DNA from: Bacteroidia bacterium
GTDB taxonomy: Bacteria; Bacteroidota; Bacteroidia; B-17B0; Aurantibacillaceae
Direction of reading: 5' to 3'
Assembly: GCA_036676295.1 (NCBI GenBank)
Contig: JAKFDE010000035.1
Location: forward strand, 18,727 to 82,726
DNA length: 64,000 nt
Shown: one piece after another, positions 24,619-64,000 of the stretch
Layout: each line of letters begins with the position of its first letter
Position numbering within the stretch: the stretch's first letter is position 1
Translations under genes and position numbers: made by a program
The notes under the pieces: generated by a model
Database searches by the model: none
What the model was told of the DNA's origin: nothing
Seen by the model: only the letters and a program-made list of their open reading frames with translations

Positions 24619-24673
24619 GTCACATCGAGCTCGTCGAGAACGATTGCATACATCTCGACGAGCTCGATGTGAC
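24619..24673. repeat. REP-like perfect palindrome (GTCAC..GAGC..TCGAGA family) between trpG and trpD
   Basis: gtcacatcgagctcgtcgaga-N13-tctcgacgagctcgatgtgac, with perfect 21 nt arms. Related copies at 44462, 48745, 50436 and 51249. Confidence 0.85.
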
Positions 24674-24697
24674 GAAAGATTATGGAAGAATAATTAA

Positions 24698-37680: not shown

Positions 37681-37713
37681 TTTGGAACTAATGATTTTTA
37701 TGCTTTAAATTTG
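37681..37713 (+). promoter_or_regulatory. Putative promoter of the SAM-riboswitch/met leader transcript
   Basis: TTTG (37681-37684), N21, TAAATTTG (37706-37713), ~30 nt upstream of the riboswitch P1 stem. Confidence 0.45.
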
Positions 37714-37745: not shown

Positions 37746-37877
37746 AATTTATAAAGAAGTGGCGAGAGAATAGGCTCATTGACCCACTGGCAACCAACTC
37801 AAAGTACAGATGTTACAATCAGTATTGGAAAACAGGTGCCAATTCCTACTCCGATGAAAAGCGGAGGAAAATAAATT
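37746..37877 (+). promoter_or_regulatory. SAM-I (S-box) riboswitch aptamer
   Basis: P1 AAUUUAU (37746-52) pairs with AUAAAUU (37871-77). ...GUGGCGAGAGAAUAGGCUCAUUGACCCACUGGCAACC...GGUGCCAAUUCC UACUCCGAUGAAAAGCGGAGGA reproduces the conserved GGCAACC / GGUGCCAAUUCC junctions and the P4 hairpin (CUCCG/CGGAG). Lies upstream of metX-hom. Confidence 0.8.
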
Positions 37878-51248: not shown

Positions 51249-51302
51249 GTCAGTTCGAGCCTATCGAGAACTAGACACACATCTCGACAAGCTCGATGTG
51301 AC
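51249..51302. repeat. REP-like palindromic element
   Basis: gtcagttcgagcctatcgagaa-ctagacacaca-tctcgacaagctcgatgtgac, between cysH and cysD. The right arm differs by 1 nt from the trpG-trpD copy. Confidence 0.8.
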
Positions 51303-51317
51303 AAAAAAATAAACAAA

Positions 51318-55050: not shown

Positions 55051-57552
55051 CTATTGATATTGGCTGTTTTTTCTGTTTTTAAAATATTTTACGGTTTCAA
55101 GAATTATCAAAACAGAACTTGCTCCAATTAGTGATGATACAAAATGTTTATAGCCCGGAAATTCAAAGCTGAAAATTTGTTGCATGAACGGAACAGAAAT
55201 CACAACGAGCAACACAACAATTGCAACTGTAAGAATGATCCACGCGGCCCAGTTTTTTTCGGTTATGATTTTAATAAAGTTTCTTGTTTTAGAAAGATTA
55301 GTGAGTATAAGAAATACATTTCCAATGATCAAGGAAGAAAATGCAATTGCTCTCACCTCTTCATTAGTATGGCCTTCGTGAATGGAAAGAAAATAAATTG
55401 TCATGGTCATACCAAGTAGGAGTAACCCTTGTAGTACGCTGGCTAAAATTTTATTTCCTCCAAAAAACTTTTCTTTTGAGTCTCTTGGTTTTCTGCTCAT
55501 AATATTTTCTTCTTCTTGTTCATGTTCAAAAGCAATTGAACAAATAGGATCAATTATCAGTTCCAGAAGCACGATATGTAATGGCATTAATAAGATTGGT
55601 AAAGAAGAGAAAAAAGCAGGTAATAACGTCAACCCAATTATTGGAATGTGGATAGCTATAATGTATGACATTGCTTTTTGTAGATTGTCAAATATTTTTC
55701 TTCCTAAACGAATGGCAGATACAATGGAAGCAAAGTTATCGTCTAATAAGACTAGTGAAGAAGCCTCTCTTGCAACATCGGTTCCTTTGTTCCCCATTGC
55801 TATACCAATATCGGATGCTTTTAATGCAGGAGCATCATTTACGCCATCGCCCGTCATGGCTACAATTTCATTATTAGCCTGCAGTGCCCGTACAATTCGC
55901 AGTTTTTGTTCGGGTACAACGCGTGCAAAAACAGTTATACCGGATATTATATGTTTTAGTTCATCATCATTTAATTTGTTTAATTCACTACCGGTCATTA
56001 ATTTTCCTTCACGCTTCATGCCTATTTGTTGTGCAATACTTTTAGCGGTTGCCGGAAAATCACCGGTGATCATAATTACTTTTACACCGGCATCTTGACA
56101 TTCTTTAATAGCAATTGGCACTTCAGGTCGTATAGGATCTTCCAGACCAATTAGACCCTTAAATTTAAATTCAAACTCAATTTGCGAATCCGGTAAAGTG
56201 CCCGATGTTGGTGTGGAGTCTGCAACAGCAATTACCCTGTATCCTTTTTCTGCAAAAGATTCAACAATATTCAAATATTTTTCAGTGTCTTGGTTATTTA
56301 ATTTACATAATTTAAAAATAGTTTCCGGTGCTCCTTTAGTTGCTACTACAACCGCATTGGATGTAGTATCTTTTAACACCCTTGTCATTGCCAATAATGA
56401 TTTGCTTAAAGGATATTCTTTAAGTAGTTCTGAAGAATCGTCGGCATTGTTATTTACTAATTGATCAGCTGTTTGAAAAGCTTTCTCCATTGGATCTACT
56501 GAGTTTTTTTGAGAAGCCAAATGAGCCAATTTTATAATTTCAGAAATATGATCTCGTGTGTCTAAAAATGTATTTTTTTCGAAAGTGTCATGGCCATTAT
56601 ATACAATGCCAACTTCCATTTTATTTTGTGTAATGGTTCCTGTTTTATCACTGCATAAAACTGTTGCAGAGCCAAGTGTTTCAATAGCTGATGGTTTTCT
56701 TGTTAAAACATTTTTTTTTGACAAGCGCCATGCACCTAAGGCTAAAAAAACGGTAAGAACTACTGGAAATTCTTCAGGAAGTATAGCCATTGCCGAAGCA
56801 AGACCATTTAATAGAGATTGAATAAAATTACCCCTTACAAAATAAAAAGTTAAAACTACAACCGTACTAATAATTGCGCCAAATATAAATAAATTGCGAA
56901 TAAGGGATTTCATCTCTTTTTGCATACTGGTTTCATGTTGTTCGATACTTAATAAGGAACTTCCAATTTTTCCAAACTCAGTATGTATACCTGTAGCAAT
57001 TATCTTGATATATCCTTTACCCTGTATTACCAGTGTTCCGCTGTAAACAAGTCCGTTTTTGTTGGTAGGATCTTTCTGAACAGATTTTAATACAGGGACA
57101 GATTCTCCGGTCAAAATAGATTCGTCTACAGTAAGGTTTAATGAGTCAATTAAAATTCCATCAGCAGAAACTCTGTCTCCTTCGTTTAAAATAACAACAT
57201 CATCAGGTACAACTTCTCTTCCTGAAATTCTTATTTCTTTTCCGTTTCGGATCACTAATGATCTGGGAGAAGAAAGATTTTTAAGAGCGTTTAACGCTTT
57301 TTCGGTTTTTTGATATTGGTAAAACGTAATAAAAATAATAATAAAAATTGTTGACAGGAGTATTATTCCTTCATTTATATCTCCTAATAAAATGTATAAA
57401 CAACCACAAGTTATAAGAAGTAAAAACATAGGTTCTTTGATCACTTCAATGGCAATACCAATAATATTCTTTGGCTTTTCTGAAGGCAATTCGTTGTATC
57501 CAAAAGAGCTAAGTCTTTTTTGCACTTCACTTGTATTTAAGCCATTTATCAT
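55051..57552 (-). CDS. Cation-transporting P-type ATPase (type II, Ca2+/Mg2+-like)
   Basis: 833 aa. TGES, CSDKTGTIT phosphorylation site, MITGD and TGDGVNDAPAL motifs. ~10 TM helices. Confidence 0.92.
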   Translation of the reverse strand: MINGLNTSEVQKRLSSFGYNELPSEKPKNIIGIAIEVIKEPMFLLLITCGCLYILLGDINEGIILLSTIFIIIFITFYQYQKTEKALNALKNLSSPRSLVIRNGKEIRISGREVVPDDVVILNEGDRVSADGILIDSLNLTVDESILTGESVPVLKSVQKDPTNKNGLVYSGTLVIQGKGYIKIIATGIHTEFGKIGSSLLSIEQHETSMQKEMKSLIRNLFIFGAIISTVVVLTFYFVRGNFIQSLLNGLASAMAILPEEFPVVLTVFLALGAWRLSKKNVLTRKPSAIETLGSATVLCSDKTGTITQNKMEVGIVYNGHDTFEKNTFLDTRDHISEIIKLAHLASQKNSVDPMEKAFQTADQLVNNNADDSSELLKEYPLSKSLLAMTRVLKDTTSNAVVVATKGAPETIFKLCKLNNQDTEKYLNIVESFAEKGYRVIAVADSTPTSGTLPDSQIEFEFKFKGLIGLEDPIRPEVPIAIKECQDAGVKVIMITGDFPATAKSIAQQIGMKREGKLMTGSELNKLNDDELKHIISGITVFARVVPEQKLRIVRALQANNEIVAMTGDGVNDAPALKASDIGIAMGNKGTDVAREASSLVLLDDNFASIVSAIRLGRKIFDNLQKAMSYIIAIHIPIIGLTLLPAFFSSLPILLMPLHIVLLELIIDPICSIAFEHEQEEENIMSRKPRDSKEKFFGGNKILASVLQGLLLLGMTMTIYFLSIHEGHTNEEVRAIAFSSLIIGNVFLILTNLSKTRNFIKIITEKNWAAWIILTVAIVVLLVVISVPFMQQIFSFEFPGYKHFVSSLIGASSVLIILETVKYFKNRKNSQYQ

Positions 57553-57603: not shown

Positions 57604-57690
57604 GTGCCAATAGCAACAAATCTGATAGTTAGTTGGAGTTTAGCGCTTTTGTATATGCCGAAGCTGGATGTCCAAATTTAATTTAGGTGA
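57604..57690 (-). repeat. Junction repeat copy E0 (truncated)
   Basis: caatagcaacaaatctgatagttagttgg...gcgcttttgtatatgccgaagctggatgtccaaatttaatttaggtga aligns with both ends of E3 (61867-62000) and lacks the central part. Lies between the SRPBCC gene and the ATPase gene. Confidence 0.65.
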
Positions 57691-57740
57691 GTTATTGGCT
57701 GTGTTTATATCTTTGTATTTTAAAGATATTCTTGAAATTG

Positions 57741-58226
57741 TTATTTTTCACAAATTTCTTTCAACTTATCGAGTGCTTTTGGGTAGGTCTGGTTCATATA
57801 ATCTAAAAAATCTTCATTGGTGTCTAAGTCAACAGTAACGGTTGCCGTTCCCTGTCCGACTGGATCGCCCGTACGGGCATTGTTTTCTTCGAAGGTATAG
57901 TTTTCAAATCCGTTTGCCCATTTTTCCACTTCTGGTCCTTCTGTAATTTCTTTATCCGCTTTAAAAAGACCATAATGTTGAATCGACACAAATCGGTTGG
58001 GAATGTTTTCAACTATCTTGGAAACCATACCTCCCTTTTCTCCTTTTTCATCTACTCCAATAAATAGAATTTTATTTTCCTTGTCCCAATTTCCTTCATA
58101 GGTCGATGTCGGATTAAACAAAGAAGTCCATTGCTCATAAGTTGATTTACTGTTGATGCCAAGCATAAAATCATAAATCTTGGTCACAGGTGCATTGATG
58201 CTTATTTTGAATTGTAATTTTTTCAT
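57741..58226 (-). CDS. SRPBCC/AHSA1-like domain protein
   Basis: 161 aa, size and pattern of Aha1/BPI-like START-fold proteins. Tentative. Confidence 0.55.
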   Translation of the reverse strand: MKKLQFKISINAPVTKIYDFMLGINSKSTYEQWTSLFNPTSTYEGNWDKENKILFIGVDEKGEKGGMVSKIVENIPNRFVSIQHYGLFKADKEITEGPEVEKWANGFENYTFEENNARTGDPVGQGTATVTVDLDTNEDFLDYMNQTYPKALDKLKEICEK

Positions 58227-58336: not shown

Positions 58337-58510
58337 CCTATAACGTTTTGGAGCTAAATTTTAGTTTGGGCTTTGAAACCGTTTCTATCAAACTGCTTAA
58401 TAACAAAGTTAAATGTTTATTAGCCATTTGCAAAGTGAAAATTAAAAACTTGTCTACCGCTTTTGCAAATGCTTTGATGTCGCCTAAATAATACAACCCG
58501 TGTGTTGGTG
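58337..58510 (-). repeat. Junction repeat copy E1 (promoter-bearing)
   Basis: Minus strand: CACCAAC end box, TTTGCAAA palindromes at 58462-69 and 58427-34, and promoter CTTTG (58431-35)-N19-TAACTTTG (58404-11). Ends AAAACGTTATAGG (58337-49). Its 52 nt core is 51/52 identical to E5. Confidence 0.85.
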
Positions 58511-58572
58511 TCTGGTGTTCTATCTGTCTTTATTATTTGTTAAAGATAATTTGTTAATCCACGGCCATGTTA

Positions 58573-59001
58573 CTAAAAATTAGATCTTTGGATTCTTAAC
58601 ATATTTGCTACTCTTAACTCTACATATATTATCAATACTATAATAAAAATTTCAACCAAAAAATATATCAATCCTATTCGTGTTAAGTCGTTGTAATAAG
58701 TATATAAAAACGTCATTGTCAAAATACAATACAAAAAATTACTAATACCTATTATTCTTAAATAGGGTGTCCAATAGTCTTTAAGAAAAAGGTAACAAGA
58801 CATAGAATAAGCACAATAAACCAAACCAATTATTGATAAGAATGTCAAAATGTTTGCAGGCATACCGAAGTAATCGTAGTAATGTCTTAAAACAAAAAAC
58901 AAGGAACACGTTGTCAATGCTGCACCCAAACCGTCAAGTAGAAAAAGTTTCTTTGGTTTTCTTGAAAAATAATCTATTGTGCTTTTGATATTAATCTTCA
59001 T
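58573..59001 (-). CDS. Hypothetical 4-TM membrane protein
   Basis: ORF-track ORF 58573-59058 starts at TTG. The ATG at 59001 gives MKINIKSTIDYFSRKPKK followed by 4 hydrophobic helices. Confidence 0.5.
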   Translation of the reverse strand: MKINIKSTIDYFSRKPKKLFLLDGLGAALTTCSLFFVLRHYYDYFGMPANILTFLSIIGLVYCAYSMSCYLFLKDYWTPYLRIIGISNFLYCILTMTFLYTYYNDLTRIGLIYFLVEIFIIVLIIYVELRVANMLRIQRSNF

Positions 59002-59093
59002 ATGGTTTTCTCTGAAAAGAATTTGTCTGTCATGTTTTTTTTGGTCAATAGTTAACAATATTTTTATTCATACAATTTTTCGTTCATATAACT

Positions 59094-59525
59094 TTATGCT
59101 TCGATACGAGGCCATTTCCATGCGTAACGGATGATTAGACAAAGAAGAACGGCTTCTACAACAGCGCCAAACACCATGTGCATCCAAGCTTCTCCTGCTA
59201 AATTAAACAATGTAAAGGGAATATACACCGCGGCAATAATGATATTTACCCAGCGATTTATAATAGCCGGTAGGGCAGCAGAAAGGAAAATCATCAGTGC
59301 CGGAATGGTTACTGAGGCGAGTGCTGCCAACAGAAATCCTTGCGTAATATCAAATTCAAACACCCTCCCTGTTTGAATATCTACAAGCTTACTCGGCATA
59401 TATAAGTGGAAATAATCAACATAGATATAGAGAAACATAAAACTCGCCCAAAGCATAGCAAGCTTCAGTTTCATACTAACTTTGATATCTTCCAGTGCAT
59501 TTTGTGATGATTTTTGTGTATCCAT
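59094..59525 (-). CDS. Small polytopic membrane protein (DUF6326-like)
   Basis: 143 aa. KLKLAMLWASFMFLYIYVDYF... and C-terminal YAWKWP resemble DUF6326 members as I recall them. Confidence 0.5.
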   Translation of the reverse strand: MDTQKSSQNALEDIKVSMKLKLAMLWASFMFLYIYVDYFHLYMPSKLVDIQTGRVFEFDITQGFLLAALASVTIPALMIFLSAALPAIINRWVNIIIAAVYIPFTLFNLAGEAWMHMVFGAVVEAVLLCLIIRYAWKWPRIEA

Positions 59526-59535
59526 AAATTTTCAA

Positions 59536-60165
59536 TTAAAAGTTATAACCAACATTAAGGCCTGGTTCCGGAAAGATGAATTTAGACCATTTATCATCTA
59601 GCTGTTTAAATCCATCAGGTAATTTTGTGTGATAAGCACGATGGGTCATACATACTGATGGTTGAAAGAAAAATTTATCTTTAAAGAGTTTGATGTGATA
59701 ACCAACACGGTATGAATTGAAAATCTGAAAACCATCGTCAATTTTCTTACCATTGTCATTCACAAAAATTTGCCAGGTAGGCATTACATCAAGTTGGGCA
59801 TACAAACCTTTCCATAAAAATCGTGTGTAAGAAGTTGTTGCGCCATACTCACGAATATACCCCGGAAATCTTTCTTCCGGTTTTTTGTAGGCTTTGTTTA
59901 AAAATGGATGAATACCATTTGGCCAGGCATATTTCCAGGTTTTTGGAGCTAATGTAATTACATCTTTTCCTGTGATCCGATAACCTATATTGAGTTGAGC
60001 GAAGTTGGGTGGGTTTTCTGTATCAAGATTACCCAATAGAACAAATAAAGAAGTCCCAACGAACCACTGTTTGTAAGTACTGTCTTGTTTGGCATATTGT
60101 GCATTCACCTGTAAGCTGCTTGTCAACACTAGGGCAAGTCCAAAGCATAAAATTTTCTTTTGCAT
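59536..60165 (-). CDS. Hypothetical secreted beta-barrel-like protein
   Basis: 209 aa. Signal peptide ...SSLQVNAQ and C-terminal ...GLNVGYNF, typical of OMP barrels. Confidence 0.5.
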   Translation of the reverse strand: MQKKILCFGLALVLTSSLQVNAQYAKQDSTYKQWFVGTSLFVLLGNLDTENPPNFAQLNIGYRITGKDVITLAPKTWKYAWPNGIHPFLNKAYKKPEERFPGYIREYGATTSYTRFLWKGLYAQLDVMPTWQIFVNDNGKKIDDGFQIFNSYRVGYHIKLFKDKFFFQPSVCMTHRAYHTKLPDGFKQLDDKWSKFIFPEPGLNVGYNF

Positions 60166-60249
60166 ATCTTTTTTTTATTGATAAATGATATTGCAAAAGT
60201 AGATTGGCGAGACACCATAACTTGTTCACTTAAGTTAAGAAATACGTTT

Positions 60250-60828
60250 TTAGCTCTTTTTTTCAAGAATTCTTGCTCTTAATCTGCTTAATGATTGAGG
60301 TTTGATCCCTAAATAGCTCGCTAATTGGTGTTGTGGCACACGCTGAACAAGGTCTGGTCTTTTTTGTAATAAATTAAGGTATCGTTGTTCAGGCGAAGAA
60401 GTTTTAAACTCGTCAAAGTCTAGTTGCCGTTTAGCTAACAATTCTTCCGACAACATTCTGCACATGATTTCAAACTTTGGAAATTTACTGTTTATTTCTA
60501 CTCCCATATCAGAATTTGAAATTAGAAGAATACTGTCTTCAACACAACTTATGAAATAATCAGAAGGAGATTTGTTTATTACACAATGAGGTGTTAAGGC
60601 GTCCTGTTCTGTGTAGAAAGCTGTTGTTTTTTCTTCTCCGTCTATGATATAATAAACCCGAATACAGCCTTTTAAAACAAAATAGCTCTCTGGAGATTTT
60701 TGTCCTTCTTTGAGTAAAACCGTCCCTTTCTTTACTGAGTGAAACAGGTCTAAAGAAAGTAATGCGTTCTTCTCATCATCTGTCAGAGAAACGTATTTTG
60801 AAATAAAGTCAAATAGTAAGTCTTGCAT
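60250..60828 (-). CDS. Crp/Fnr-family transcriptional regulator
   Basis: 192 aa. cNMP-binding-like domain and C-terminal HTH (LASYLGIKPQSLSRLR). Confidence 0.8.
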   Translation of the reverse strand: MQDLLFDFISKYVSLTDDEKNALLSLDLFHSVKKGTVLLKEGQKSPESYFVLKGCIRVYYIIDGEEKTTAFYTEQDALTPHCVINKSPSDYFISCVEDSILLISNSDMGVEINSKFPKFEIMCRMLSEELLAKRQLDFDEFKTSSPEQRYLNLLQKRPDLVQRVPQHQLASYLGIKPQSLSRLRARILEKKS

Positions 60829-60865
60829 TATTTTTACGTGTTGTTAATGTCGTCTGTTACACTTG

Positions 60866-61029
60866 CCACCAACGCCTTTCAGCTACCAGTTTACAGCTCA
60901 AGGCCGTCTTCTACCTAAAAGCTTACTAACAAAGCTAAATATTTCTTAGCCATTTGCAAAACTAAAAAATTCTACGCCTTAAATTTTTGTAAATGCTTAT
61001 ACTTCTGCCCGCATTAGGCAAAGGTGCGG
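60866..61029 (-). repeat. Junction repeat copy E2 (promoter-bearing)
   Basis: Starts directly after the MBL stop codon. Minus-strand promoter TTTG (60957-60)-N19-TAGCTTTG (60930-37). TTTGCAAA at 60953-60 and TTTGTAAA at 60986-93. End box GGCGTTGGTGG (60866-76). Confidence 0.8.
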
Positions 61030-61767
61030 TTAGCGGTAGTTTTTCTTTTTCAGTTTTTTTGCCAACTTTATTGAATGTTTTAATGAGTTTATATTATTCC
61101 AGTCGTGATGTGAAACGATTATAAAGTTTGGATCAGGATATTTTTTCTGCACATTTTTAAGAGTAGTTTCGTATTCAATAACATTGCCATCTCCCAAGTA
61201 ACCTAAATTTTCAGCATCTCCGCCTTTAATAAGACAACCACCGTATAGTATTTTCTCTTTGTTAAACCAAACAATAATGTTGTCTGCTGTATGTCCTTCT
61301 CCGGGGTAATAAGTTTCAAATGAATATTGGCCAATACTGAAAACTGTGTCCTTTGTCATTAAAAACTCAGCCCTTTTCTTGTTATGTTTTTTACTTAGTT
61401 CATCAGTTAGAAAAGTTGTGTAAGTTTTAATTCCTTTTTGTTTGTAATATTCAAGTCCTTCAGTTCTGTCGCTATGCCAATGCGTTGCAATACACAAAGT
61501 CACACTTTTGTTGTGTTTTAATTTTATACTGTCAATCAACGGTTGAAATTGTGTTGTGTCCCAAGGTGTGTCAAACAATACAACGCCATTATTTGTGAGA
61601 AGATACATTCCATTTGAAGGTATTAGGCTTCCTTCGTAAGTATTGTATGTTGTATAAATGTAAAAGTTGTCTGTTAAGTATGAGATTTTAAGTTTCGCTT
61701 CTTCTGTCTGTCCAAAAATATTGGTTAGTGAAAAAATGAATGTTATTGTCAATATAATTGTTTGCAT
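61030..61767 (-). CDS. Subclass B1 metallo-beta-lactamase
   Basis: 245 aa with signal peptide. HWHSD (H116-x-H118-x-D120), GEGHTADNIIVW (H196), GGCLIK (C221) and SHHD (H263) are in B1 order and spacing. Confidence 0.85.
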   Translation of the reverse strand: MQTIILTITFIFSLTNIFGQTEEAKLKISYLTDNFYIYTTYNTYEGSLIPSNGMYLLTNNGVVLFDTPWDTTQFQPLIDSIKLKHNKSVTLCIATHWHSDRTEGLEYYKQKGIKTYTTFLTDELSKKHNKKRAEFLMTKDTVFSIGQYSFETYYPGEGHTADNIIVWFNKEKILYGGCLIKGGDAENLGYLGDGNVIEYETTLKNVQKKYPDPNFIIVSHHDWNNINSLKHSIKLAKKLKKKNYR

Positions 61768-61812
61768 TTATTTCTTGTCTTTTTTGATTGGATTATGTTG
61801 TCTTTAAAACTA

Positions 61813-62014
61813 CCACTAGCGTTTTTAAGCTACCAGTAGTGCTGTTTGAAATCGTTTTCTACCGAACTGCTAATAACAAATCTAAATGTTTATTGGCTAT
61901 TTGTAAGACAGCGCTCCGATTTTTTTATCGGAGGTGAATTAACTAATTGCCTGCCGCTTTTGCAAATGCCGAAGCATAATGCCCAAATGGGATTTAGGTT
62001 GTGTTAGGCGCTGG
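61813..62014 (-). repeat. Junction repeat copy E3 (promoter-bearing, longest)
   Basis: Minus strand begins GCCTAAC (62003-09 on plus as gttaggc), 5 nt after the upstream stop. TTTGCAAA at 61959-66. -7 box TAGATTTG (61877-84) with a degenerate -33. Inner CTCCGAT/ATCGGAG hairpin. End box AACGCTAGTGG. Confidence 0.8.
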
Positions 62015-62020
62015 TTAATT

Positions 62021-62488
62021 TTAATTCATTTGTCTAATAAAAGTATATTGTTTTGTGTCATTTGTTATTTGTCTAACAAATTTAAGTTGGTATATATGTT
62101 TAATATTGCATTTATTTTTAATAAGCATTTTGTTGCCTTGTAGCGTTTTATATTTGAAAGTGCTGCAAGGAAAGTCATAGGTGTATACTGGTGGCTTTTT
62201 GCAAATTAGCTCTGTAGTCAACCACAAATGTTTTTTTGATTTGAATGTCAAAACAGTTATTTCACAAATAGATGAGTCTTTTATATAAGCACTATTGTCA
62301 TAGAATACAATAGTATCGTTATTAAAAATGTCTTCATAATGCTTTAAGCAAATCAAATTTTTTGTGCTAATTTCTTTGTCTGATAAAAATTTGATTATAA
62401 TTTCATCCAGTTTGAAATTAGTTATTGGCTGTCCGTATGCAGAAACAAACATTGTCATTAAGAAATATATAATTACGAGTCTATTCAT
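62021..62488 (-). CDS. Hypothetical small secreted protein
   Basis: 155 aa. Signal peptide MNRLVIIYFLMTMFVSAYGQ. Several Cys. No motif recognised. Confidence 0.5.
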   Translation of the reverse strand: MNRLVIIYFLMTMFVSAYGQPITNFKLDEIIIKFLSDKEISTKNLICLKHYEDIFNNDTIVFYDNSAYIKDSSICEITVLTFKSKKHLWLTTELICKKPPVYTYDFPCSTFKYKTLQGNKMLIKNKCNIKHIYQLKFVRQITNDTKQYTFIRQMN

Positions 62489-62664
62489 AACGGAAAGCGG
62501 CTAAATTTTAGTTTGGGCTTTGAAACTCTTTCTACCGAAACATTACTGACAAAGATAACTGCTTAATGGACATTTGCAAAGCACAAATAAACTACTTTCA
62601 CGCAGCGACAGCTTTTGCAAATGCTGTACTCGAATACCCAAATAGAACCGAGAATTTGTAATTG
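62486..62664 (-). repeat. Junction repeat copy E4 (promoter-bearing)
   Basis: Promoter CTTTG (62577-81)-N19-TATCTTTG (62550-57). TTTGCAAA at 62573-80 and 62614-21. The 5' UTR module ggtttcaaagcccaaactaaaatttagc is shared with E1. End box CCGTTATG overlaps the next gene's ATG. Confidence 0.8.
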
Positions 62665-63201
62665 TTATTTTATTGATTTTTCGTTCGACCATACAATTGT
62701 TTGTTTGTCCTTTGGTCTATTGAAAATATTTATGTCCCCTAAATTTTTATTTGTTAAGTCGAAAGTTTTTTCAACCGAATAAAAGTCAAACCCTAAGTTA
62801 ATTTTTGTCTCCTTACTACTACACCTGAAATGTGCTTGAAAATCATACTGTCCTTTTGGCGCTATTTTCATAAGTCTCGGATAACTGGCGTTGCAATTTA
62901 TAAAAGGTGTCAATACAAATTTCGCTGTGTCGTAACGTAACGAATATTGTTCTCCGTCACATGAAGAAGATAGAAAATAAACAGTGTCAGTATTGTCGTT
63001 GAAGAGCGAAGCTTTGATTTCTATTGTCTCTTTAAAAGTGTTAATTCGTTCTGCAGTAAAGTCAAAGCGTATATTTTCTTTTACTTTTCCCTGTGTCTTG
63101 TCAGAACCTACAACACTTAGTTCGGGTTGGTTTGGTTCTCTGCCCGCAATACAAGAAAGTCCTAAAGTAAGAATTATCAAAAATAGAGTTTGTCTTGTCA
63201 T
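62665..63201 (-). CDS. Hypothetical lipoprotein
   Basis: 178 aa. MTRQTLFLIILTLGLSC lipobox. No motif recognised. Confidence 0.5.
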   Translation of the reverse strand: MTRQTLFLIILTLGLSCIAGREPNQPELSVVGSDKTQGKVKENIRFDFTAERINTFKETIEIKASLFNDNTDTVYFLSSSCDGEQYSLRYDTAKFVLTPFINCNASYPRLMKIAPKGQYDFQAHFRCSSKETKINLGFDFYSVEKTFDLTNKNLGDINIFNRPKDKQTIVWSNEKSIK

Positions 63202-63231
63202 TTTATTGTCGTTTTACAATTACACTTAACT

Positions 63232-63400
63232 TGCACCTAACGTTTTCGCGGTTTACTTCGGCCGTTTTGGAACCATTGTCTACCGAAATGTTTCCTAACA
63301 AAGCTAAATGTTAATTGGCCATTTGCAAAGTAAAAATTAAAAACTTGTCTACCGCTTTTGCAAATGCCAAAGTTCAATGCCCGTATTTTTTATAGGTGCA
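63232..63400 (-). repeat. Junction repeat copy E5 (promoter-bearing)
   Basis: Minus strand: TGCACCTA...TAGGTGCA terminal 8 bp inverted repeats. TTTGCAAA at 63357-64 and 63322-29. Promoter CTTTG (63326-30)-N19-TAGCTTTG (63299-306). End box AAAACGTTAGGTG (GTTAGGT fits GTTRRRY). Confidence 0.85.
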
Positions 63401-63435
63401 GTTATATGCTGTAAGCGTCACCCATTTAATACTAG

Positions 63436-63927: not shown

Positions 63928-64000
63928 TCTGATTATTTTATCGTGAATAACTCTTCTATGTGTGACTTATAATGTTTCAGTAACATTTTGTTTTTATCTG

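Follow-up and report, generated by a model that had tools for sequence, protein, structure and literature searches.

The 64,000-nucleotide (nt) stretch analysed here, hereafter the window, lies on contig JAKFDE010000035.1 of an assembly of a Bacteroidia bacterium (GCA_036676295.1, family Aurantibacillaceae), and its end is occupied, on the minus strand, by a run of co-oriented open reading frames (ORFs) with a repeat between them. The repeat copies are named E0-E5 in the order of their coordinates; E1-E5 are full and E0 is truncated. The locus raises the question of what these repeats are and from where the genes between them are transcribed. A preliminary description had seen in every full junction repeat a promoter of the Bacteroidetes type, set among paired palindromes that might be a pair of operators or a hairpin. 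Our analysis leads us to conclude, with a probability of roughly 0.7, that the junction repeats are attC-like recombination sites of an integron-like cassette system of Bacteroidota, each with a promoter directed toward the next cassette. The repeat belongs to the cassette upstream of it, and so the promoter does not travel with the gene that it is predicted to drive, a point absent from the preliminary description.

Cassettes, probable recombination sites and a recombinase

The repeat is not confined to the window. A scan of one genome per species with the pattern GCATTTGCAAAAG-N20-50-TTTGCAAAT returned at least 114 stretches, and those listed come nearly all from metagenome-assembled genomes of Bacteroidota (Bacteroidia, Sphingobacteriaceae, Saprospira and Flavobacteriales). 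With an nhmmer profile built from 91 copies and run on the listed loci, about 100 loci of Bacteroidota that carry L-numbers below, at least 250 copies of the repeat were found, up to 8 of them within 8 kb. The copies are about 165-190 nt long, the profile consensus being about 200 nt, and they contain a core of ~110 nt with 80-99% sequence conservation. The 5' TAAC and the 3' AACGTTA are nearly invariant (TAAC was found in 196 copies and GTTA in 176), and conservation drops just outside both. These ends have the form of the inverse core (R'', RYYYAAC) and the core (R', GTTRRRY) of an attC site, with a crossover at G|TT, although the bases after GTTA are not always purines.

The flanks of the repeats carry a second signal. 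When the 6 nt behind the opening GTTA of a cassette are compared with the 6 nt ahead of the TAAC at its own end, a mean of 4.59 of 6 positions pair (n=103), and 73 cassettes reach at least 5. In comparison, the two flanks of one repeat pair at 2.17 of 6 positions and random pairs at 2.05 of 6. Complementarity between the start of a cassette and its own end is what marks integron cassettes, which form circles and are cleaved within the GTT core, and it rules out a repeat that inserts alone. In the window it is found between GTTGGTGG in E2 and CACCAAC in E1, where the core base itself covaries (the E1 R'' CAAC matches the GTTG at the start of its own cassette in E2), between GTTATAGG, the start of the last cassette in E1, and the R'' of E0 (CCAATAAC), and between GCTAGTGGTA in E3 and TACCGCTAAC in E2.

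One cassette is common to two genomes, represented by loci L019 and L051. Its body is 99.5% identical between them and its downstream repeat 98.1%, whereas the values fall to 73.6% for the upstream repeat and 60.7% for the next 150 nt; the identity starts and stops at CG|TTA. This pattern indicates that the mobile unit is a gene together with the repeat that follows it. Across the family, cassettes have a median length of 716 bp, of which the ORF fills 88%. Presence/absence alleles of the window array were also sought among the contigs of four groundwater DNA runs, where only short-sided joints that break inside repeats were found; these are expected from assemblies fragmented by repeats and are not usable as evidence.

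Fold predictions distinguish the two states in which a site can exist. For 106 sites rebuilt in the circular form, 70-75% of the minimum-free-energy structures have the two ends paired, versus 22-41% in the array form, and folds of the bottom strand are predicted to be on average ~2.5 kcal/mol more stable. The 5' and 3' arms of a site match in type above chance, with arm-duplex energies of -16.6 versus -12.2 kcal/mol (p=2e-7).

A tyrosine recombinase of about 380 amino acids (aa) is encoded in eight loci, one of which, L015, has a 242-aa fragment that is not at an array head. The other seven (L068, L086, L090, L096, L097, L099 and L103) can be judged, and in each of them the gene precedes the array in the same orientation and has downstream of it an exact 9-mer complement of the R'' of the first detected repeat. 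A conserved TATAAGnTAGTTA stands directly at this 9-mer in five loci (L068, L090, L097, L099 and L103); in L086 and L096 the motif is at an earlier junction, adjoining the recombinase gene. The TATAAGnTAGTTA junction is an attI-like site. It is preceded by locus-specific inverted repeats, and L097 and L103 have an extra gene between the recombinase and this site. In 7 of 7 loci the recombinase stop codon is spanned by a TTTG-N19-23-TA(t/c)ATTT(G/A) motif, whose TTTG falls in the codons of the conserved C-terminal ..PFD and which is a candidate for the platform promoter.

The recombinase is composed of Phage_integrase and SAM-like domains, preceded by an N-terminal region of ~105 aa that matches no Pfam family. 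It passes the NCBIfam model NF040815 (XerA / integron integrase) with 223.5 bits against a cut-off of 220, and stays below the cut-offs for integron integrases (TIGR02249, 199 bits versus 265; PRK15417, 123 versus 435). Its best matches among solved structures are to archaeal XerA (4a8e, 1e-40; 5hxy, 6e-39), with VchIntIA and XerD ranking below it. It has more than 8000 homologues, which go by the names XerD, site-specific integrase and integron integrase.

Promoter motifs, the central hairpin and competing readings

In the preliminary description, the promoters of the five full repeats had the form TTTG-N19-TAnnTTTG, were perfect in four of the five, and lay 60-180 nt upstream of an ATG. Reading the minus strand and searching for the exact pattern bear this out (Table 1). 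The pattern has 4 matches in 64 kb on both strands, all of them inside E1, E2, E4 and E5, and the distances from the -7 box to the ATG are 178, 102, 110, 62 and 98 nt in E1-E5. Relaxing the spacer to 17-21 nt adds only four matches across the other 57 kb of the window, and a sigma-70 scan gave nothing above shuffles. The shuffled window has a mean of 1.02 exact matches and reaches at least 4 in 2 of 100 shuffles; since the five copies are homologous, this null is not meaningful, and the relevant test is conservation across the 209 copies elsewhere that cover the promoter region.

Both motifs are conserved across genomes in these 209 copies. The -33 TTTG is kept in 197. The aligned -7 box is exact in 115 and has one mismatch in 84 (TATCTTTA in 51, TATCATTG in 13, TATCTTCG in 12) and two in 3, so that 199 of the 202 sites aligned there deviate at one position at most. 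Exact full matches number 109; 99 of them have a spacer of 19 nt and 10 have one of 18 nt. Across 89 non-redundant copies the element has no more than three invariant columns, and the TA of the -7 box accounts for two of these. The third position of this box (n in the consensus) varies and its consensus positions are ~90% conserved; the spacer shows only loose conservation. The sigma-ABfr consensus consists of a -7 TAnnTTTG and a TTTG near -33 (PMC7366714), and the pattern found here agrees with it: T A n C T T T G in the -7 box, where the third base is free, at a fixed spacing of 19 nt from the TTTG. Subfamilies with other hairpin arms (GCAAAGCCAA/TTGGCTTTGC and GCAAATGCA/TGCATTTGC) still keep TTTG-N19/20-TAnnTTTA, which speaks for selection on the promoter geometry itself. 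The promoter and the longest ORF point the same way in 114 of 130 cassettes; the ATG follows R' at a median distance of 41 nt, and the leader is about 90-100 nt. Family-wide conservation thus supports a -33/-7 promoter toward the downstream ORF in each full repeat, its activity being predicted from sequence, and the distinction that had been drawn between this array and the mostly promoterless cassettes of classical integrons holds as well.

A conserved box had also been described after the -7 box. It is exact (TCGGTAGA) in E3, E4 and E5 (61858, 62531 and 63279), and has one mismatch in E2 (TAGGTAGA) and two in E1 (TTGATAGA); in the family, the box downstream of -7 (model positions 129-139) is 80-99% conserved. 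In E1-E5, and in the other loci generally, CGGTAGAC is present as a direct repeat, with two copies ~70 nt apart, one in the central loop and one just past the -7 box. These direct repeats are a candidate binding site for the extra N-terminal domain of the recombinase.

The palindromes of the preliminary description resolve into the arms of a hairpin. Exact TTTGCAAA occurs 13 times in the window, 8 of them in repeats, and exact pairs are found only in E1 (58427/58462), E4 (62573/62614) and E5 (63322/63357), where they are 35, 41 and 35 bp apart; one arm has a single mismatch in E2 (the upstream arm, TTTACAAA) and in E3 (the downstream arm, CTTACAAA). The two boxes form a stem of 12-13 bp with one bulge per side. 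RNAalifold returned no structure from the 89-sequence MAFFT alignment, in which the arms are too gappy, and pair counts, arm-duplex energies and per-sequence folds were used in its place. In the 89 copies, the arms pair in 84.8% of cells, versus 27-51% when the partners are slid by 1-3 columns, and one hairpin pair covaries (AU 66, UA 10). Three subfamilies have other, mutually complementary arms: the two named above and TTTTTTGCCTACA/TGTAGGCAAAAAA, with at least 10 copies. The pairing, the covariation and the stem kept in three subfamilies favour the hairpin among the two interpretations that had been offered, and the operator pair is not supported.

Several observations weigh against the view that the repeats are attC-like sites with a promoter. 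The window ends inside the array, and neither a recombinase nor an attI site was seen in it. In the recombinase of the other loci the IntI-specific insert is absent: in a two-piece alignment, residues 285-310 (26 aa) face residues 181-248 (68 aa) of VchIntIA (2a3v). Complementarity between cassette start and R'' is absent in 3 of the 6 window cassettes, and the window copies are mostly mismatched hybrids, with the 5' arm of one type and the 3' arm of another; these two features suggest either rearrangement between conserved cores or an array in decay. The central hairpins, being rich in A and T, have modest stability (z -1.4 to -2.1); the window stems of E1, E3, E4 and E5 have -7.7 to -11.4 kcal/mol, and that of E2 is unstable. 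As for the promoter, the -33 element overlaps a hairpin arm, so its conservation alone is not creditable to promoter function. The TTTTTTGCCTACA/TGTAGGCAAAAAA subfamily keeps the hairpin without a recognisable promoter, and hence copies can persist without the promoter. The other genes of the window show no upstream enrichment of exact TAnnTTTG (10 sense versus 9 antisense matches, 55 genes), and for the window organism this consensus is a presumed one. The public runs that contain this organism are DNA only, from groundwater and soil. When four metatranscriptomes were compared with L019, element sequences were present in the RNA assemblies at a depth of up to about 214, in contigs that are unstranded and end at repeat branch points, so that their 5' ends cannot be placed.

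The best surviving alternative, to which we give a modest share of the probability, is that the repeats are recombination sites only. The match to a promoter would then come from recombinase-binding or structural constraint in AT-rich DNA, and the cassettes would be transcribed by read-through from the platform promoter, for which there is a candidate at the end of the recombinase gene. The position of the -33 element within a hairpin arm and the promoterless subfamily agree with this. It is harder to reconcile with the -7 box, which lies outside every predicted stem and contains two of the only three invariant columns, and whose pattern and spacing match sigma-ABfr position by position. Nor would structural constraint explain why subfamilies with different arms keep the same geometry, or why the motif points at a co-oriented ORF ~100 nt away in so many cassettes.

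A second alternative takes the repeats as regulated promoters, with the two TTTGCAAA palindromes as an operator pair for a dimeric regulator that switches the array; the candidate is the Crp/Fnr-like product of the gene at 60250-60828. The palindromes do exist and have a fixed position, one of them lies on the -33 element, where a bound protein would occlude the promoter, and besides the Crp-like gene in the array another one directly follows a repeat in L109. Against this, the 794 ORFs of the roughly 100 listed loci, which contain 250 repeats, include a single Crp-like homologue, and TTTGCAAA is replaced in subfamilies by unrelated, mutually complementary arms, the stem surviving its full replacement. 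The covariation of the hairpin pair fits base pairing and not a fixed recognition sequence. The palindrome is also unlike the consensus sites of CRP (TGTGA-N6-TCACA) and FNR (TTGAT-N4-ATCAA). The Crp-like gene is cargo, because it is the first gene of a four-gene cassette, and the earlier suggestion that its product binds the palindromes is abandoned. The operator model is unlikely and, like the two readings below, we reject it on the evidence given with it, although a conserved chromosomal regulator encoded elsewhere may still bind the palindromes.

It is very improbable that the repeat is a structured RNA (a 3' untranslated region with a terminator followed by a 5' leader, or a small RNA) or an insulator that was copied by gene duplication without site-specific recombination. 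The element does lie on the coding strand between co-oriented genes, it does occur in metatranscriptome contigs, and many copies have, in the central loop, small GC-rich hairpins capped by TTCG with T-rich runs behind them. However, Rfam 15 has no family that matches the window repeats at the gathering threshold, and at E up to 5 there are chance-level matches only; a terminator scan predicted no terminator-like site in any window repeat. Such a reading cannot explain the complementarity of cassette start and own end over 0.3-5 kb, the breaks of identity at CG|TTA, or the recombinase and attI-like site at the heads of arrays. The 3' arm could nevertheless act as an RNA leader alongside recombination. 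Least credible of all are miniature inverted-repeat transposable elements, or elements of the repetitive extragenic palindromic type, that insert between genes by terminal inverted repeats TAAC..GTTA and carry an incidental outward promoter: many dispersed copies of ~180 nt per genome and the inverted ends would suit them, but the flanks of one copy are no more related than chance, no target-site duplication was evident in the few copies inspected by eye and left unscored, the pairing sequences flank the gene and not the repeat, the moving unit is a gene with its downstream repeat, and the copies form co-oriented tandem arrays with a tyrosine recombinase at the head.

Under the reading that we prefer, in which the repeats are attC-like sites that carry promoters, a cassette would extend from the TTA of one GTTA core through its ORF or ORFs to the ..TAAC of the next site, and on through the ~165-nt site body to the G of GTTA. 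The Xer-like tyrosine recombinase at the array head would cut at G|TT and excise cassettes as circles, which would be inserted at the attI-like site (..TATAAGnTAG|TTA) just 3' of the recombinase gene. The single-stranded site is predicted to fold into a terminal stem (NNNNNNTAAC / GTTANNNNNN) that is complete only in the circular form, an imperfect arm stem, and the central hairpin with the two TTTGCAAA boxes as its arms. Its 3' half would contain a primary-sigma promoter, with the -33 TTTG in the 3' hairpin arm, the -7 TAnnTTTG 19 nt on, and the TTTCGGTAGA box directly after the predicted transcription start. In double-stranded DNA this promoter would fire outward across the GTTA junction into the next ORF ~100 nt away. 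Each cassette would be transcribed from the promoter brought by its upstream neighbour, at any position in the array, and the first one would rely on the comparable promoter where the recombinase gene ends. Once a cassette is circular, its promoter would point at the gene of that same cassette. The sequences themselves show that the repeats form one family with defined ends, that cassette ends are complementary, that a cassette is shared between different neighbours, that arrays are linked to a recombinase and an attI-like site, and that motifs and ORF orientation are conserved; we infer that transcription starts at the -7 boxes, that the recombinase acts on these sites and that its substrate is a folded single strand.

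The array in the window

The sites, promoters, hairpins and cassette ORFs of the window are collected in Table 1. At its distal end the array adjoins a P-type ATPase gene (55051-57552), and the truncated E0 that lies there keeps R'', the 5' arm and the first hairpin arm (GCATATACAAAAGCG), that is, the first third of the element without the promoter. Truncated 5' portions with differing break points are also present in L018, L038, L041, L060, L067 and L081. At the other end the array extends past position 64000: a 1257-bp public contig (L001, positions 1-662) shows the 3' end of another repeat (..GCGAAAACGTTACCAGTAATG). On the same contig a 201-aa ORF lies 5 nt upstream of the 163-aa ORF, so that the two form a two-gene cassette, whose start is not complementary to the R'' of E5. 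Sites and genes can be tightly packed. The final base of the E4 R' GTTA is the A of the ATG of the next ORF (62486-62488), and the stop codon TAA of the metallo-beta-lactamase gene sits within the R'' CTAAC of E2.

Table 1. Coordinates of attC-like sites, predicted promoter elements, hairpins and cassette ORFs in the window
Feature	Position	Strand	Remarks
E5, full attC-like site	63238-63404	-	R'' TAAC 63401-63404, R' GTTA 63238-63241; nhmmer 63413-63219, E=1e-46
E4, full attC-like site	62488-62661	-	R'' degenerate TTAC 62658-62661, R' GTTA 62488-62491; nhmmer 62662-62482, E=4e-44
E3, full attC-like site	61817-62006	-	R'' TAAC 62003-62006, R' GCTA 61817-61820; nhmmer 62015-61795
E2, full attC-like site	60870-61032	-	R'' TAAC 61029-61032, R' GTTG 60870-60873; nhmmer 61041-60840
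E1, full attC-like site	58341-58507	-	R'' CAAC 58504-58507, R' GTTA 58341-58344; nhmmer 58516-58323
E0, truncated attC-like site	57641-57701	-	R'' TAAC 57691-57694; nhmmer model positions 7-68, E=2e-4
E5 predicted promoter	63299-63329	-	-33 TTTG 63326-63329, 19-nt spacer, -7 TAGCTTTG 63299-63306; exact pattern match
E4 predicted promoter	62550-62580	-	-33 TTTG 62577-62580, 19-nt spacer, -7 TATCTTTG 62550-62557; exact pattern match
E3 predicted promoter	61877-61907	-	-33 degenerate CTTA 61904-61907, 19-nt spacer kept, -7 TAGATTTG 61877-61884
E2 predicted promoter	60930-60960	-	-33 TTTG 60957-60960, 19-nt spacer, -7 TAGCTTTG 60930-60937; exact pattern match
E1 predicted promoter	58404-58434	-	-33 TTTG 58431-58434, 19-nt spacer, -7 TAACTTTG 58404-58411; exact pattern match
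E5 TTTCGGTAGAC box	63278-63288	-	just 3' of predicted transcription start
Direct repeat GCGGTAGA of E5 box	63348-63355	-	central loop of E5
E4 TTTCGGTAGAA box	62530-62540	-	
E3 GTTCGGTAGAA box	61857-61867	-	
E2 TTTAGGTAGAA box	60909-60919	-	one mismatch
E1 GTTTGATAGAA box	58383-58393	-	two mismatches; direct repeat GCGGTAGA at 58453-58460
E5 central hairpin	63320-63366	-	arms CATTTGCAAAAGC 63354-63366 and CTTTGCAAATG 63320-63330 (holds -33); -9.1 kcal/mol, z=-2.1
E4 central hairpin	62571-62623	-	arms 62611-62623 and 62571-62581; DNA fold -10.0 kcal/mol
E3 central hairpin	61898-61968	-	arms 61956-61968 and 61898-61911 (3' arm degenerate); -11.4 kcal/mol, much of it from inserted hairpin
E3 inserted 20-nt hairpin, CTCCGAT-A6-ATCGGAG	61914-61933	-	central loop
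E2 central hairpin	60951-60995	-	arms 60983-60995 (CATTTACAAAAAT) and 60951-60961; weak pairing, -3.8 kcal/mol, z=0
E1 central hairpin	58425-58471	-	arms 58459-58471 and 58425-58435; DNA fold -7.7 kcal/mol
Cassette ORF, 163 aa	63436-63927	-	lipoprotein-like, no Pfam family; cassette start outside window, cassette also holds 201-aa ORF
Cassette ORF, 178 aa	62665-63201	-	lipoprotein-like, no Pfam family; predicted E5-promoter-driven
Cassette ORF, 155 aa	62021-62488	-	signal peptide, no Pfam family; predicted E4-promoter-driven
Subclass B1 metallo-beta-lactamase, 245 aa	61030-61767	-	single-gene cassette; predicted E3-promoter-driven
Crp/Fnr-like regulator, 192 aa	60250-60828	-	Pfam cNMP_binding; first in four-gene cassette; predicted E2-promoter-driven
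Second gene of four-gene cassette, 209 aa	59536-60165	-	secreted, no Pfam family
Third gene of four-gene cassette, 143 aa	59094-59525	-	DUF6326 membrane protein
Fourth gene of four-gene cassette, up to 161 aa	58573-59058	-	membrane protein
Last cassette ORF, 161 aa	57741-58226	-	no Pfam family; predicted E1-promoter-driven

The metallo-beta-lactamase is assigned to its class by the NCBIfam model bla_subclass_B1 (252 bits, cut-off 200) and by the BlaB/IND/MUS model (295 bits, cut-off 270). Small Crp-like regulators are recurrent cargo of these arrays. A second Crp/Fnr-like gene (E=1e-17 to the window protein) starts at about 2861 (+) of L109, directly after a repeat. In groundwater run X5 the last cassette (57741-58226) has an assembler depth of 245-347 versus ~6 for its neighbours, and it seems to be present in other, more abundant genomes too.

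Small hairpins in the central loop, such as the one inserted in E3, are found in other family members as CCCTTCGGG, CGCTCCGCG or TCCCGATAGCTATCGGGA, usually with a T-rich run after them, and the hairpins with their T-rich runs may be terminators for the upstream gene. Elsewhere in the window there is a SAM riboswitch (RF00162, 66 bits) at 37746-37877 (+), with a full TTTG-N21-TAAATTTG promoter match, among the few that the window has outside the array, just upstream (37681-37713), and a 36-nt repeat, 86% identical between 24647-24682 and 51276-51311 (+), which has an internal palindrome CATCTCGAC..GCTCGATGTG and is unrelated to the array.

Comparison with known systems

The arrays resemble classical integrons in several respects. 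Both consist of tandem, short, mostly single-ORF and co-oriented cassettes; each cassette ends in an imperfect inverted-repeat site that runs from ..YTAAC (inverse core) to GTTA.. (core); the cassette start is complementary to the cassette's own inverse core, implying a circular intermediate cut at G|TT; and the array is headed by a tyrosine recombinase and an attI-like site, with a platform promoter, here a candidate one, that overlaps the recombinase gene. The recombinase differs in that it has no IntI insert, scores below the TIGR02249 cut-off and carries the extra N-terminal ~105 aa. It is also co-oriented with the cassettes, an arrangement otherwise seen in the 'inverted' integrons of Treponema and relatives. 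Classical attC sites are 57-141 bp in size and conserved in structure only, whereas the sites described here are 165-190 nt long with a ~110-nt core conserved in sequence; their central stem has bulges, which may correspond to the extrahelical bases of attC. Classical cassettes are usually promoterless and dependent on Pc (PMC2791841, PMC11511950), whereas a predicted promoter with at most one mismatch in the -7 box is carried by nearly all of the aligned sites here. The logic of the system is that of an integron, and three defining features of integrons are missing from it: the IntI insert, short and sequence-variable attC sites, and promoterless cassettes.

In Bacteroidetes, IntegronFinder 2.0 reported only In0 elements and one complete integron, in Salinibacter ruber (PMC9024848). 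Integrons have been held to be nearly absent from this group, and their cassettes to be promoterless and dependent on their distance from Pc; here the same cassette logic is found without the IntI hallmark domain. We lean, somewhat less firmly than in our reading of the repeats themselves, toward the view that the arrays represent a widespread and undescribed class of integron in Bacteroidota, with a XerA-like recombinase that has no IntI insert, long sequence-conserved attC sites that act as portable promoters and make expression independent of position, and a cargo that includes a B1 metallo-beta-lactamase. The current size limit for attC and the IntI profile probably miss this class of array in environmental Bacteroidota. 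No earlier description of these arrays or of the repeat motifs was found in the literature searched, which left most subscription journals out of reach. With a B1 metallo-beta-lactamase as a single-gene cassette, the arrays are a plausible route for such genes among Bacteroidota.

Promoters inside an array that free cassettes from position effect have precedents. Known cassette-borne promoters are located in the 5' untranslated region of the cassette's own gene (PMC8876359, PMC3001079); the cmlA, qac, qnrVC and toxin-antitoxin cassettes have promoters of this kind. Group IIC-attC introns sit in attC, and their outward promoter Pout drives the downstream cassette (PMC3001079; PMC8876359); Pout, however, belongs to the intron, a mobile element distinct from the cassette that has entered attC. 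The promoter proposed here differs from both in being a conserved and integral component of the recombination site, where it lies 3' of its own gene and would serve the neighbour. With a promoter in the recombination site, every cassette would be transcribed wherever it is placed, and the insertion of a cassette would re-wire the promoter of its neighbour.

The chromosome-dimer resolvases XerA, XerC and XerD are related to the recombinase through the structure match to XerA and the score above the NF040815 cut-off, and some of its homologues are named 'site-specific tyrosine recombinase/integron integrase' at NCBI. Unlike them, it has an additional N-terminal region and heads cassette arrays by an attI-like site and not a dif-type locus, and the sites are unlike the 28-bp dif sites. 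Integron logic on a XerA-like recombinase bears on the origin of integrons from Xer-like recombinases. The pdif modules of Acinetobacter plasmids are likewise discrete gene modules bounded by sites for Xer-type recombinases, some of them with resistance genes. They use the XerC/XerD of the host and 28-bp dif-like sites in alternating orientation, and, in contrast to the arrays described here, have no dedicated recombinase, attI, large folded site or built-in promoter.

A spacing of 19 nt between the two promoter elements is regarded as optimal for Flavobacterium promoters. If active as predicted, the 170-nt element would be a ready-made, conserved promoter module for Bacteroidota genetics. It shares with sigma-ABfr promoters the -7 TAnnTTTG, the -33 TTTG (PMC7366714) and the 19-nt spacer, and differs from them in being a repeated module inside a recombination site, in which the -33 element doubles as part of a hairpin arm.

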